Shown: positions 58,553-63,641 of the stretch, one piece after another
Layout: every line of letters begins with the position of its first letter
How positions within the stretch are numbered: the first letter of the stretch is position 1
NCBI GenBank assembly: GCA_027364655.1
Contig: DAHXOX010000071.1
Coordinates: 4,938-68,937 of the forward strand
DNA from: Paludibacter sp.
GTDB lineage: Bacteria; Bacteroidota; Bacteroidia; Bacteroidales; Paludibacteraceae
Length of the DNA stretch: 64,000 nt
Direction: 5' to 3'
Made by a program: the position numbers and the translations under genes
The notes under the pieces: generated by a model
What the model was told of the DNA's origin: nothing
Databases searched by the model: none
What the model saw: only the letters and a program-made list of their open reading frames with translations

Positions 58553-61500
58553 TTAAAAACCAAGATTAACGCCCATGCTTACAGTACGCGTAACAGGATA
58601 AACGTTATTGTCTATTCCACTTGCCCCGACTTCAGGATCAAAGCCCGTGTATTTTGTTAATGTATATAAGTTTTCGGCTGAGATATAAATGCGGGCAGAA
58701 GCAATTGAAAGAGGCTTTAAGAGTTTTTGCGGTATCGTATAATTAAGCGTTACGTTCTTAATTCTCAAATAAGAGCCATCTTCAATATATCTGTCGGACG
58801 GGCGGGTATTTTCATTTGGATCGTTGTACACGGCACGAGGCATAGAGTTGCTTGTTCCGGGTCCTGTCCAGCGGGTTAGCACTGCCGTTGTCTGGTTATA
58901 TGCCGCATACATACTTTCATCATAAAGCCGATTGGCATTCAATATTTTATTTCCGGCAACTCCTTGCAGGAAAATGCTTAAATCAAACCCCATATATGAA
59001 AACGTATTGCTTAATGAAAAAATGAATGTCGGATTTGGATTTCCCAAAAAAGTTCGGTCTTTACCATTGATCACTCCATCGTTATTAAGATCTTTGAACC
59101 GTATATCCCCGGGAGAAGTGCGATTATACGGATCATTCCCTGGAACTTGTAATGCATGGCTATTCACCTCAGCCTGAGTCTGAAAAATACCATCGGTTAC
59201 ATATCCGTAAAACTCATTAATAGGTTGTCCGGCCTGTATCAGTGCTAAGTTATAATTCAATCCGATACTCCCTGTTGGCATAGGCACAGTGTCATTGATA
59301 CTGATTACTTTGTTCTGATTGTAGGAAATATTGAAAGAGGAAGACCATTTAAATTTACCGGTCAAATTCTTGGTATTTACAGACAGTTCCACTCCCTTAT
59401 TTTCCATTTTACCGGCATTGATGGAAGGCACGTATACATCGGAGTAACCTGTCGTAATTGGAACGGACATAGGCACTAACATCTTATCTGTGTACTTGAG
59501 ATAACCATCCAGCGTGAAATTAATTCTATCATTCAGGAGTATGGCGTCAATCCCGATATTGGTTTGTTTTTGTTCCTCCCATTGCACATTAGGGTTGGGC
59601 ATTACATTAGGCACCACAGCCGACACAATAGAATTGTTGAAGTTGTATGCTATAGTTTGTAAAGCTGAAGCAAACGAATAATTACCGATTTGCTGGTTAC
59701 CTGTGACACCGAAGCCTGCACGTAGTTTAAGATCATCCACGAAACGAATGTTTTTGAAGAAATCTTCTTTTGAAATCCTCCATGCTGCCGACCCGGAAGG
59801 AAACATTCCCCATTTATTTCTACTTCCAAAACGGGAAGATCCATCCCTGCGTAACGTTGCTGTAACAAGATATTTCTCTGCATAATTGTAATTCACACGC
59901 CCCATGTAGGATAATAATGACCAACTGCTTTCGTCTCCGCCAACGGTTGGGTTGGTGGTGCCATTAGTCATTTGCTGGGTTAGATCACTGGCAAATCCCT
60001 GAATAGAGCCATTCAAGAAATTATATTGGTTCTCCTGGGCGCTCGTTCCGACCATGGCGGTCACATGATGTTGTCCAAACTGTTTGTCGTAAGTAAGCGT
60101 GTTATCCCAATTCCATGTGAAACTCTTATTATATTGTTCACTAAGATATGCATTTGGATTGATGCTGGTATCCCACGAATATTCTGGCGCCCAGGTTCTG
60201 CTGTCCCATAAATTCCCTTGAAGACCTGCAGTAGATTTCAGTTTTAGCCCTTTAATTATCTCCAGCTCTCCATAAATCGATCCGATGATATTGTACCCAT
60301 TTGTAGCATTATCCACAGTTTTTGCCAAACCAATCGGATTAACAAGATCACCATCCCATATCGGCTGTGCAACAGGACCTGAATACGATCCGTTAGCTCT
60401 GTAAATAGGTTGAGTTGGTAAGGCCAGCATGGCATTCTGAATGCTATAATTTCCATTTGTTCTGATATCATGGTTCAAGGTAAGACTATTGCCAAATCGC
60501 AGGTTGCTCAACAACTGATCATCTGCATTAAATTGCAGTGTGAGCTTCTTATAGCCGGTATTGACAACTATGCCGTTTTGATCAATATAATTACCTGAAA
60601 CATAATAATTTGATTTGTCATTGCCTCGTGAGTACGAGAATGAAAGATTGTGCATTGGCGCAACATTGAAAAGCGCTCCAAGCCAATCAGTGCCTTTCCC
60701 TAAAGAAGCAGGGTTAGCATAAGCCGGATCTCTTGCCAGACCGGCATTGTCCATCATATCATTATGTAATGCAGCAAATTGTGCAGCATCCAACATGTGT
60801 ACAGTTTTTGCCGCTTGCTGAAGCCCAAAATAATAGTTCAGGTTTATCTGCGGTTTTGAGTCATTTTTACCATGTTTTGTGGTCACAATCACAACGCCAT
60901 TTGCACCCTGAGAACCATAAATGGCTGTAGCGGAAGCATCTTTTAATATCTGAACAGACTCAACATCGTTCATGTTCAGTTCTCCCAATCCGCTTGACAC
61001 TGGAACACCATCGATCACATAAAGAGGAGAAGCGTCATTGATAGTCCCCACCCCGCGTATAAGAACTGTCGGATCGCTACCAGGTACTCCGGAAGAAATA
61101 ATCTGCACTCCGGCAGCCCTACCCTCTAAAGCATCACCAATCGTTGCAACGGGTATTGAATTCAGATCTTTGGGTTCAATCACGGCAACCGACCCTGTTA
61201 AATCTTTTTTGCGCTGCGTTCCATAGCCCACCACTACCACTTCATCAAGTGCTTTGGATTCTTCGGTCATTACAATATGAAGTGGAGCATCACCTTTCGG
61301 AACAATTTCTTGTGAAGAAAATCCCACATACGAAAATCGAAGAACAGGATTCTTAATCGTTTTGTTCGAAAGAGTGAATTTTCCGTCAGCATTGGTTATT
61401 GTACCTATAGAGGTTCCTTCAAACACAACACTGACACCAATAAGCGCCTCGCCTTTAGCATCGACCACCGTGCCGGTGATCATTCCCGTAGTCTGGGCTG

Positions 61501-61603
61501 TTAATCCCTGCGAGATGAATAGCATACAACATATCATCACTATGCTGTATGACACTTTTTTTAGATATACCATTGATTTGAAATTTAAGGTTGTTACTTT
61601 CAT
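58553..61603 (-). CDS. susC: SusC/RagA TonB-dependent transporter
   Basis: N-terminal carboxypeptidase-regulatory-like domain, VVVGYGTQ, plug LKDASATAIYGSQGANGVV, C-terminal Phe. An alternative start is ATG 61573. Confidence 0.98.
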   Translation of the reverse strand: MKVTTLNFKSMVYLKKVSYSIVMICCMLFISQGLTAQTTGMITGTVVDAKGEALIGVSVVFEGTSIGTITNADGKFTLSNKTIKNPVLRFSYVGFSSQEIVPKGDAPLHIVMTEESKALDEVVVVGYGTQRKKDLTGSVAVIEPKDLNSIPVATIGDALEGRAAGVQIISSGVPGSDPTVLIRGVGTINDASPLYVIDGVPVSSGLGELNMNDVESVQILKDASATAIYGSQGANGVVIVTTKHGKNDSKPQINLNYYFGLQQAAKTVHMLDAAQFAALHNDMMDNAGLARDPAYANPASLGKGTDWLGALFNVAPMHNLSFSYSRGNDKSNYYVSGNYIDQNGIVVNTGYKKLTLQFNADDQLLSNLRFGNSLTLNHDIRTNGNYSIQNAMLALPTQPIYRANGSYSGPVAQPIWDGDLVNPIGLAKTVDNATNGYNIIGSIYGELEIIKGLKLKSTAGLQGNLWDSRTWAPEYSWDTSINPNAYLSEQYNKSFTWNWDNTLTYDKQFGQHHVTAMVGTSAQENQYNFLNGSIQGFASDLTQQMTNGTTNPTVGGDESSWSLLSYMGRVNYNYAEKYLVTATLRRDGSSRFGSRNKWGMFPSGSAAWRISKEDFFKNIRFVDDLKLRAGFGVTGNQQIGNYSFASALQTIAYNFNNSIVSAVVPNVMPNPNVQWEEQKQTNIGIDAILLNDRINFTLDGYLKYTDKMLVPMSVPITTGYSDVYVPSINAGKMENKGVELSVNTKNLTGKFKWSSSFNISYNQNKVISINDTVPMPTGSIGLNYNLALIQAGQPINEFYGYVTDGIFQTQAEVNSHALQVPGNDPYNRTSPGDIRFKDLNNDGVINGKDRTFLGNPNPTFIFSLSNTFSYMGFDLSIFLQGVAGNKILNANRLYDESMYAAYNQTTAVLTRWTGPGTSNSMPRAVYNDPNENTRPSDRYIEDGSYLRIKNVTLNYTIPQKLLKPLSIASARIYISAENLYTLTKYTGFDPEVGASGIDNNVYPVTRTVSMGVNLGF

Positions 61604-61690
61604 TTCCAGATAGTTGTTTTTTTAAATGATTGATAATTTACACGTAGAATAACTCTGCCAACAGAATTAGGCCGGTTGAGTTACTAAATT

Positions 61691-61756
61691 TCAGGGAGGC
61701 GGATGTTTAAAAGGTAGTTGTTTTTTCATTGATTTCAAATTTAAATAGTTAACCAT
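61691..61756 (-). CDS. Putative leader peptide (uORF) MVNYLNLKSMKKQLPFKHPPP*, or 12-aa MKKQLPFKHPPP* from ATG 61729
   Basis: Manual translation. The ORF lies between the susC promoter and susC, its ATG 61729 has the same AAATCAATG context as susC ATG 61573, and it ends Pro-Pro-Pro-stop. Confidence 0.5.
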   Translation of the reverse strand: MVNYLNLKSMKKQLPFKHPPP

Positions 61757-61796
61757 CGAAGACAAGGTCTCAAGTCAATCGCTTGCTTTTATGCAG

Positions 61797-61804
61797 CAAA
61801 TGTA
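61797..61804 (-). promoter_or_regulatory. susC promoter -7 box (TACATTTG)
   Basis: CAAATGTA on +, about 190 nt upstream of susC. Confidence 0.65.
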
Positions 61805-61932
61805 GAAACGATTCACTCGCGTAAATTTCACAGAAATGTAAATGTAGTAACCGTAGCATGTATACAGCTGCTATCATGCTGTCAAACAAGACATTTATAT
61901 GTATGAGTACGGAAAAGAATGTAGTAGAATTC

Positions 61933-61975
61933 AAAAAAAAGTCCTATAAGAACCTTTTTTTCTTATAGGACTTTT
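61933..61975 (-). terminator. susR terminator
   Basis: AAAAGTCCTATAAGA/TCTTATAGGACTTTT stem with an A8 run on +. Confidence 0.85.
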
Positions 61976-61994
61976 CGTTCGAATACCACAAAAT

Positions 61995-63641
61995 CTACTG
62001 TATATTCGTCCCAATCCGCATCACTTGCGCTTCAAATTCTTCACGAGCACCTATGGCTTTGTTTCTTGCTTTCGTGCGATAGTTGTATATAGTCGATAAT
62101 GAATAGCGCAAAAAATGGGATATTTTGACACTATCGGTGATTCCAAGACGAATAAGGGCAAAAATCCGTAATTCCGTATTCAGGAGTTCTCCTGACTTAG
62201 GAACAATAGCCTCGCCTTTCACCAATAAGCTATTGAATTCTTCAATAAAATTGGGAAAAAGCTGCAAGAAGGTAGTGTCGAAATTGGCGTAAAACTCTTT
62301 CAGCTCATCTTCAATAAACTGATTTGACTTGATGGCCAGCAAAAGATCATTGATTTTACCTGCAGCAGCTGTTCTGTTTAATAAATGACGATAATTATCC
62401 AGCTTGTCAATATAGAGGGAGCATTGATCCATATAACGACCAATATATTCTTCTTTAATGAGGTTGGCTTCAAAAAGTGTGTTATTCGTCTCTTTGAGCT
62501 GCTGATTAGTTGAAAAAAACTCATTATTCAACCCATTCAATTGCTCATTTGCCCGACTTAAATCCATCCGTGCTTTCTTCAGTTTCTTCATTTGCCTATA
62601 TAGCAAAAACAAAACGATCAGCAAAAACAAAGACAACACACTGATACTTATCAAGAAAACGATCAATTGCCGTTGCCGCGCCTTAGTTTCCAACTGATAG
62701 GCTTTTTCAATGATGGGCAACATCTGCGATATTTCAATAGTGCGCAAACGGGCATTACAAAAAAGAGCGTCTTCAAGCGAGCGTTTTATATATTTGTAAG
62801 CTCTGTCAATTTCACCGTCTTCATATAGGATAAATGCAAGACTACGCAGGGAGATATATTCTTTCGTGTCCGATTGTAAATCGTAAATTGCCGATATGGT
62901 AAGCCATTTCTCTTCAAGATTCCGCTCTCTTTTTCCATGATAGGCTTGCGATATGCTATAAGCAATGATCGCACGATCATGATTATCTTTTGGTATTGTG
63001 GGGTAATATGCCTGCAATAATTTCAAAGCCTCATCATATTTCTTATTGACAATCAATTGATCCGATCTCACCATAATGTACGGACTGGATTTCGGAGGAT
63101 TGGCTATAAGAAGTGAGTCACGGTAATTGGCAGTTAAATAATCATATCGGGCTTTCTCTTGATTTGAAACCGCATAATCAGCCAGATATCCGTAAATAGT
63201 TCGATAGATATAAAAATAATAGGCTCTTAAATTGGGTGAATACTTTATATCTACGCTTTTTACAATGTCTAAGGCTTCATTATACATGCCAACGGTGCCC
63301 ATGATAGAAGCCAGATTCAAGCGAGCCTCATTCAGCTTATTTTTATCGTGAAGTTTCTCCGCAATTTGCAATTTGATGCGGGCATAACTAAGCGCAGAAT
63401 CTGATGTATACGCTTTATATTCGTCAAATAGCTGACCGCAAAGATTGTATCTCACTTCATCCGAAGAAGTAATTTGCAACAGCTCTTTTAGGTGGTGTAA
63501 TTTAGCCTCTTTAATCTTATCATAGATCGCATGATTGTCTATGGTTTGATCCAACACTCGTAACAACGAATCCATTTCGTTGCCGGCAAATCCAATATGA
63601 GTGATAAACAAACAAACAAAACCGAAACAAACTCTTTTCAT
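61995..63641 (-). CDS. susR: SusR-like membrane-spanning PUL regulator (DUF6377-type)
   Basis: Signal peptide, TPR-like periplasmic region, TM helix, [14 protein letters not shown] and [32 protein letters not shown]. Confidence 0.9.

Follow-up and report, generated by a model that had tools for sequence, protein, structure and literature searches.

The TnaC leader peptide of the Escherichia coli tna operon ends Pro24-UGA. Like the upstream ORF (uORF) described here, it is a short leader ORF in which the last sense codon is a Pro codon followed by UGA, and the ribosome held at its stop codon controls transcriptional read-through into downstream catabolic and transport genes. TnaC differs in needing free tryptophan and in blocking Rho access to rut/boxA, whereas the peptides of the uORF family are shorter (6–20 aa) and variable, and the neighbouring element in a sister clade looks like an intrinsic terminator. 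Work in E. coli showed that a Pro-Pro at the C-terminus disturbs termination in all contexts examined, and Pro-stop is known to slow it (PMC3834316). The X-Pro-Pro-stop of YbeL-PP similarly hinders peptide release (PMC3834316), but YbeL-PP is a laboratory model of ribosome rescue in E. coli and not a regulatory element. The pyrBI leader (pyrL) is alike in that a leading ribosome near the terminator hairpin blocks its formation and no antiterminator is needed. However, the pyrL ORF runs through the attenuator and its signal is UTP-sensitive pausing of RNA polymerase, whereas the uORF of clade D, the sister clade (see below), ends just before a hairpin and termination at the Pro-stop would supply the pause. 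The Salmonella mgtL and mgtP ORFs, which precede mgtA and mgtCBR, are also short, Pro-rich and located in long transporter leaders, and ribosome speed sets the conformation of those leaders. Those ORFs work through specific alternative stem-loops, with proline, EF-P or Mg2+ as the signals, while the uORF family shows no conservation of consecutive Pro codons and yielded no alternative stems.

Expression of PULs is explained by dedicated sensors (SusR-like, hybrid two-component, ECF sigma/anti-sigma), sRNAs, RNA-binding proteins and the global regulator Cur. The post-transcriptional controls of Bacteroides PULs, namely the FopS/GibS sRNAs with RbpB, the DonS antisense RNAs and the roc leader, resemble the present case in that they target the 5' end or start region of the gene that opens the PUL, as a rule susC, and add a layer above a dedicated transcriptional sensor. 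They differ in that they are trans-acting RNAs or proteins, or have a mechanism that is not established, and include no translated leader peptide. FopS sRNAs bind susC start regions (PMC11697453). A 2023 paper gives only riboswitches, sRNA targets and RNA-binding-protein sites as leader mechanisms in Bacteroidetes (PMC10294740), and a 2020 paper on the Bacteroides thetaiotaomicron transcriptome only remarks that some long 5' UTRs hold unvalidated sORFs (PMC7366714). Full-text literature searches returned no leader-peptide control of a PUL, in agreement with the first-pass annotation of this DNA, which knew of no such mechanism. Classed by its proposed mode of action, the uORF in the dextran-PUL leader described here is ribosome-mediated leader control that lies outside the TnaC, pyrL and mgtL/mgtP families.

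Genetic context of the leader

The window, which is the whole 64,000-nucleotide stretch of DNA analysed, is from a MAG of the Microbacter/Paludibacter group, and the genus set includes Microbacter margulisiae. The genes on the minus strand are arranged as follows: a SusR-like regulator gene, its terminator, a 390-nt intergenic region, susC, susD, a SusE/F-like gene and a GH66 dextranase gene. The features around the intergenic region are:

61995–63641, minus strand: SusR-like regulator gene (domain matches to TPR_SusR and SusR_C/DUF6377)
61936–61976, minus strand: intrinsic terminator of the SusR-like gene (terminator scan; susR RNA contigs of a relative end here)
61918–61926, minus strand: TACTACATT, distal operator-like repeat
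61841–61849, minus strand: TACTACATT, promoter-proximal operator-like repeat
61797–61804, minus strand: TACATTTG, Bacteroidetes -7 promoter box, with a predicted TSS near 61790 (TAnnTTTG kept in all SusR-type orthologs)
58553–61603, minus strand: susC-like gene for a TonB-dependent transporter, first gene of the susC-susD-susE/F-GH66 dextran PUL

GH66 adjoins this susC in G003, G005, G006 and G011 and is on other contigs in G001 and G008. Because GH66 neighbours susC in the majority of the genus members examined, the locus seems to be the same dextran PUL.

All SusR-type orthologs examined carry two copies of the motif (C)ACTACATTT ahead of the promoter, and the -7 box is at a fixed distance from the two operator-like repeats in all SusR-type orthologs. 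The copies form a direct repeat ~75–90 bp apart, with the proximal one ~35–45 bp upstream of TAnnTTTG in most SusR-type orthologs and farther from this box in some clade D leaders. The motif was also seen in L016, L029, L031, L033, L039, L010, L097, L098, L118, L225-227 and L188-191. The (C)ACTACATTT direct repeat is a strong candidate for the SusR-like operator.

The RNA evidence consists of bioreactor metatranscriptome contigs of an A2-type relative (see below). In runs X25, X27 and X35, RNA contigs begin at L116 ~780–798, about 7–25 nt past the homologous -7 box (766–773), and in runs X26 and X29 they reach further upstream. The A2-type contigs traverse the uORF (L116 857–892) and continue into susC, with one run giving an unbroken contig of 15 kb, and A2-type susR contigs end at or before the susR terminator. 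The contig starts just past the -7 box support a TSS at ~61790, with the uORF inside the PUL leader. The dRNA-seq tables for B. thetaiotaomicron contain no TSS for BT_3090.

A second perfect TAnnTTTG, TAAATTTG, is present at 61736–61743 on the minus strand. It lies in the repeat copy immediately ahead of the uORF ATG and is restricted to the window and G003. As a -7 motif it would put the transcription start at about the uORF ATG, but it is not conserved in L095 or G008 and is therefore probably fortuitous. By inspection, the plus strand has no TAnnTTTG that could represent an antisense (DonS-like) promoter.

The leader ORF and its start codon

The first-pass annotation reported an ORF ending CAT-CCG-CCT-CCC-TGA, 87 nt ahead of susC and between the promoter and susC. 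This ORF is present exactly as described, with the TACATTTG box upstream and susC downstream. From 61756 to 61691, the minus strand reads ATG GTT AAC TAT TTA AAT TTG AAA TCA ATG AAA AAA CAA CTA CCT TTT AAA CAT CCG CCT CCC TGA, and translation from ATG 61756 gives MVNYLNLKSMKKQLPFKHPPP followed by the TGA at 61693–61691, with an internal in-frame ATG at 61729. The uORF is 67 nt past the conserved -7 box, about 60 nt downstream of the SusR-controlled promoter, and its stop codon is 87 nt from the first susC ATG (61603) and 117 nt from the second (61573). Its parts are:

61730–61756, minus strand: in-frame N-terminal extension MVNYLNLKS from ATG 61756, not conserved as coding
61691–61729, minus strand: conserved leader ORF, short form, MKKQLPFKHPPP and stop, 12 codons (ATG AAA AAA CAA CTA CCT TTT AAA CAT CCG CCT CCC TGA; ORF homologue kept in 15/17 lineages, and codon-position test)
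61691–61705, minus strand: CAT CCG CCT CCC TGA, His-Pro-Pro-Pro-stop, proposed termination-pause site (site variants CCC, GCT and CTC; stop TGA, TAA or TAG by lineage)
61727–61744, minus strand: TTAAATTTGAAATCAATG, copy A of the initiation-region repeat, which ends in the uORF start codon (17/18 identical to copy B)
61571–61588, minus strand: TTAAATTTCAAATCAATG, copy B, which ends in the probable true susC start codon, ATG 61573

Of the two starts that had been put forward, the internal one at 61729 is conserved and the one at 61756 is not. ATG 61756 is replaced by ATT in L095 and CTG in L178, and in G008 the frame that begins with it ends after 9 codons. Judged by these alignments, the conserved coding unit is the short form from ATG 61729 and not the ATG 61756 form.

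The 18-nt repeat TTAAATTT[G/C]AAATCAATG is found in two copies, one before each start codon, and has no others in the genome. A AACCTTAAATT-like motif is also present ahead of the uORF in clades B and C. The uORF start, like the susC start, has A at -6, -12 and -13, a configuration that favours initiation in Bacteroidetes, where there is no Shine-Dalgarno pairing and spurious AUGs near start sites are normally avoided (PMC6847099). The upstream ATG of susC is absent from the orthologs L016 and L029. In L180 (1–950), an IS that carries a DUF772 transposase gene has replaced the whole leader up to CAACCTTAAATTTTAAATCAATGG, removing the uORF, the promoter and the first susC ATG and creating a natural leader knock-out. 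L180 retains only the equivalent of ATG 61573 (MVYLKK...), which argues for ATG 61573 as the functional susC start.

A second repeat, of 38 nt, is found in the leader at an offset of 103/104, and when the two halves of the leader are aligned locally, the score exceeds that of shuffled sequences in the window and in G011 (p about 0.02–0.03). MVNYLNLKSM resembles the MKVTTLNFKSM of susC. From these repeats, the leader looks as though it arose when the start region of susC was duplicated, in part, in tandem. AAATT(T/A) boxes at 61742, 61691, 61639 and 61586 are spaced by 51–53 nt, about five helical turns. We set this ~52-nt periodicity aside, as the boxes are present in the window but mutated in G008 and absent from G011.

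Orthologous leaders

Protein clusters and their encoding contigs, together with a family-wide genome search, yielded 17 distinct leader lineages. A survey of 400 genomes from the order and 400 from the family returned no clade D matches but revealed clade C. The leader peptides, each followed by its stop codon, are:

Clade A, window: MKKQLPFKHPPP, TGA
Clade A, G003: MKKQHLFKHPPP, TGA
Clade A, L095: MRKKHTFKHPPP, TGA
Clade A, L178/L186: MKKQHPFKHAPP, TGA
Clade A, L187: MKKHHP, TAA (clean 18-nt deletion, homologous Pro-stop retained)
Clade A, G008: frameshifted; skipping one A of the A7 run restores MKKQHLFKHLPP; TAA as read
Clade A2, L116 and L184 types: MKKQY[MV]PKQSP, TAG or TAA (one codon shorter)
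Clade B, G011 M. margulisiae: MKHASH, TAG (ATG AAA CAT GCT TCC CAT TAG)
Clade C, three other species of the genus: MT[NH][QR]T......SP, TGA (13 codons)
Clade D, uncultured Bacteroidales with SusC 72–75% identical: M.KQ....G....[C/R]ANSPP, TAG or TAA (20 codons)

The G011 sequence aligns with ...AAA CAT GCT CCT CCC TGA of L178 and is 18 nt shorter on the N-terminal side. In G008 (L003; homologous to window 61721–61737), an extra A that converts an A6 run to A7 breaks the frame, and 1 nt has been deleted before the ATG. The two indels preserve the spacing and break the frame, and if one A is skipped the reading is ...FKHLPP-stop. This frame break could be a real loss, a site of slippage or an assembly error.

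Selection on the reading frame

The uORF start codon is present in all 17 lineages. Indels within the uORF are all multiples of three (18 nt in L187, 18 nt in G011 and 3 nt in L116/L184), and the homologous stop position is occupied by TGA, TAA or TAG. In 15/17 lineages the final sense codon encodes Pro (PPP, APP, HHP, QSP, SP or ANSPP before the stop), while the rest of the peptide has largely turned over. With clades pooled, the minimum numbers of changes in the C-terminal codons are 2, 1 and 13 at codon positions 1, 2 and 3, respectively (13:3, binomial p = 1.2e-4), and for the [C/R]ANSPP codons of clade D alone they are 1, 0 and 8. In-frame indels, stop codon exchange, an excess of third-position changes and a retained terminal Pro are not expected of a purely RNA- or DNA-level element. 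Such an element is therefore unlikely, and the ORF is very probably translated, with a C-terminus that matters. On this comparative evidence, we are largely confident that the uORF is genuinely selected and translated.

The signal of coding selection is weaker inside the window's own subclade than when pooled over clades. From the FKHPPP codons through susC, the window leader and its relatives share identities of 0.86–0.98, compared with 0.73–0.81 at four-fold sites of susC, a sign of purifying selection on the leader. In the window clade, uORF codons 2–6 evolve at the neutral rate, and the conserved block that begins with the FKHPPP codons crosses the stop codon into the next 30 nt (0.87–0.97 identity). 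This local conservation could be explained by nucleotide-level constraint alone. Comparison of 3–4 near-identical relatives alone looks unfavourable to coding, given the G008 frameshift and the neutral codons 2–6.

The Pro-stop ending in other contexts

In the genome, 36 PPP-stop sites (CCN-CCN-CCN-stop) were observed and 21 are expected from base composition. Short ATG-initiated ORFs that end PPP-stop number six, two of them in the window. A lone occurrence is thus not significant, and significance can come only via comparative data. None of the other ten susC leaders of this genome includes a Pro-rich or Pro-stop uORF, and among 132 leaders of susC homologs from public genomes and metagenomes PPP-stop uORFs were found only in close relatives of this locus. 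After dereplication, 12 uORFs in susC leaders have Pro-stop endings, compared with 8.5 +/- 3.1 expected and 10 on the antisense strand. A Pro-stop or PPP-stop uORF as a general trait of susC leaders was therefore rejected, as it is not enriched. Orthologs with 61–68% SusC identity have leaders of ~110 nt from which the uORF is absent.

Among the 17 lineages, PPP is found in three that are close kin (window, G003 and L095). X-Pro-Pro is found in 9/17 as read, or in 10/17 if the G008 frame is restored, a single Pro is found in six, and G011 has none.

RNA structure downstream of the uORF

A conserved hairpin lies between the uORF and susC in the window:

61650–61669, minus strand: leader hairpin UAAUUCUG-UUGG-CAGAGUUA, then UUCUACGU (8 bp; 96% of cells paired in 7 lineages)

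This hairpin is 22 nt past the uORF stop codon, has two G-C pairs and is followed by a weak U-rich tail. Its loop varies (GG, GU, AA, AG or UAAG), and there is one compensatory change, from U-A to C-G. It was not flagged in the terminator scan, which found no convincing intrinsic terminator between the uORF and susC in the window. The predicted folds of the window leader are diffuse (z = -0.48), with the uORF stop codon at the base of a predicted imperfect long stem, and the sequence after the stop codon is G-poor, which is not diagnostic. Neither a conserved alternative pairing nor mgtL- or mgtP-like alternative stem-loops were found in the window, and none overlaps the Pro codons. Rfam scans of the window leader and five related loci returned nothing above noise, and no copy or complement of the C-rich block (a potential trans partner) was found in the genome or genus. 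RNAalifold proposed that the stop region (UGAAAUUUAG) pairs with the start region of susC, but this pairing was rejected: ensemble probabilities were 0.03–0.6, with different partners in each lineage. It is not robust, as AAAUUU boxes are self-complementary and promiscuous.

In clade D, a hairpin starts 1–6 nt from the first base of the uORF stop codon and is followed by 7–9 T in 12 nt. The sequences of these hairpins are unrelated between lineages. The terminator scan called two sites in clade D, at L191 919–931 and L189 564–577, where 0.1–0.5 are expected. The stability of the five hairpins is low (-0.5 to -6.5 kcal/mol), to the point of being negligible for one. The clade D geometry would allow direct occlusion of the hairpin by a ribosome at the stop codon.

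Proposed mechanism

We propose that ribosomes would release the leader peptide slowly, by analogy with E. coli, where both the joining of Pro to Pro and termination after a Pro residue are slow. A stalled ribosome would stay on the stop codon and shield about 12 nt downstream, and its occupancy would prevent or reshape folding of the RNA just past the stop. In clade D, it would cover the 5' arm of the terminator-like hairpin and so suppress premature termination, and in the window the output could be either read-through or access to the susC start region. The net effect would be that the susC PUL is expressed only when SusR activates it and the leader is also being translated. The reading as a leader peptide, probably translated, on which ribosomes would pause at termination is well supported, and we infer that its output is attenuation or start-site access. 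We give an even chance to the full reading, in which the 12-codon ORF at 61729–61691 is a translated dextran-PUL leader peptide that pauses ribosomes at its Pro-stop and gates susC. The broader proposal is more tentative, and we hold it to be possible rather than probable: the dextran PULs of Microbacter/Paludibacter-like Bacteroidales and the sister clade may share a family of leader peptides that arrest termination (x-Pro-stop or x-Pro-Pro-stop), in which the paused ribosome blocks an adjacent attenuator.

If a Pro-stop pause gates the PUL, a cis-acting, translation-coupled layer is added to its control, which is mechanistically interesting in Bacteroidota as they lack Shine-Dalgarno-guided initiation. 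It would be the first leader-peptide (ribosome-mediated) control of a PUL and among the first such attenuators outside amino-acid operons in Bacteroidota, and it would couple synthesis of a glycan transporter to translational capacity, besides the SusR sugar sensor. Natural variants provide ready-made mutants (PPP, APP, SPP, SP, a lost stop, a frameshift, an 18-nt deletion and an IS-replaced leader), and a named species, Microbacter margulisiae, has a homologous leader.

Alternative explanations

The first-pass annotation had proposed leader-peptide control through a polyproline stall relieved by EF-P, in the manner of mgtL and mgtP. The leader-peptide part is supported by the selected ORF, the Pro-stop in 15/17 lineages, placement in the mRNA of a relative and the clade D hairpin, but the PPP/EF-P sensor is not (PPP 3/17). 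In a sensor of that kind, PPP would stall ribosomes unless EF-P or prolyl-tRNA suffices, and SusC would report translation or proline status. It would fit the CCN-CCN-CCN of the window, G003 and L095, as well as the APP of L178 and the SPP of clade D, which are also X-Pro-Pro. The genome has one efp gene (one PF01132 match, contig C73), but EF-P is near-universal and the presence of efp is therefore uninformative. However, lineages other than the three with PPP read APP, SPP, SP or HP, with a single Pro in clades C and A2 and L187, and M. margulisiae has no Pro. The Pro codons of the uORF are common ones, PPP is found 15 times in ordinary proteins of this genome, and there are no alternative stem-loops over the Pro codons. 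Nor is there an evident physiological link between proline or EF-P and dextran use. As PPP is not conserved, the data do not support sensing specific to EF-P, a dedicated mgtP-type sensor of EF-P or proline is unlikely, and we consider this explanation improbable. A TnaC-like arrest peptide, in which the C-terminal residues and the tunnel bind a small molecule (a sugar or carbon-status metabolite) that inhibits release, would account for conservation of the last 5–6 residues ([C/R]ANSPP or FKH[PA]PP) and for a Pro before the stop, as in TnaC Pro24-UGA. However, each clade conserves different residues, L187 keeps only MKKHHP, peptides of 6–20 aa would barely fill the tunnel, and no data point to any ligand. 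The prospects of this explanation are equally slim.

Two further explanations deny the peptide a role. The ORF could be incidental to a nucleotide-level element, with the C-rich block acting as an RNA structure or as a site for an sRNA or RNA-binding protein (compare FopS/RbpB targets). This is consistent with the conserved block that spans the stop codon in the window clade, with the retention of spacing but not frame in G008, and with a nominally synonymous TTT-to-TTC change that also turns a G-U into a G-C pair in a small predicted local hairpin. It is at odds with the third-position excess (13/16), three in-frame indels, three stop codons at one site and the kept terminal Pro, and the block is without a copy, a complement or an Rfam match. 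We regard it as decidedly unlikely. Alternatively, the uORF may be a relic or decoy start left by tandem duplication of the susC 5' end, with the peptide and Pro-stop irrelevant and translation serving only a stand-by or decoy role. The 17/18 identical repeat, the 38-nt repeat, the alignment of the leader halves, the resemblance of MVNYLNLKSM to the susC N-terminus and the uORF-free short leaders of other orthologs all favour it. However, duplication accounts for the origin of the start codon and not for retention of the ORF, and selection on the C-terminus, retention of the Pro-stop and the clade D post-stop hairpin are left unexplained. This explanation is unlikely, though worth keeping in mind. 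We therefore prefer a translated leader peptide with a pause at its Pro-stop.

Other features of the related leaders

In one clade D leader (L191, 855–980), the uORF stop codon has been replaced by GGC, resulting in a 41-codon read-through across the terminator-like hairpin. This natural stop-loss variant was called as a gene by JGI. Approximately 25–60 nt past the uORF stop codon, clade D leaders (L188-L191 and L254) share a near-invariant block, TTTTCATTTTTTATGCAANCGAT[AT]TAGGAA, the conservation of which exceeds the need of a U-tract. The block contains a 4-codon mini-ORF (MQxI-stop), but as the third codon of this ORF varies at position 1 the constraint is probably at the RNA level.

In one lineage, the susC leader of L116 (948–1165), and those of L179, L181 and L182, include a 218-nt insert 3' of the uORF that is absent in the L184 type. 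Numerous unrelated contigs, both RNA and DNA, match this element; the depth is high and the flanking sequences differ. Judged by this distribution, it looks like a small mobile repeat that is MITE-like.
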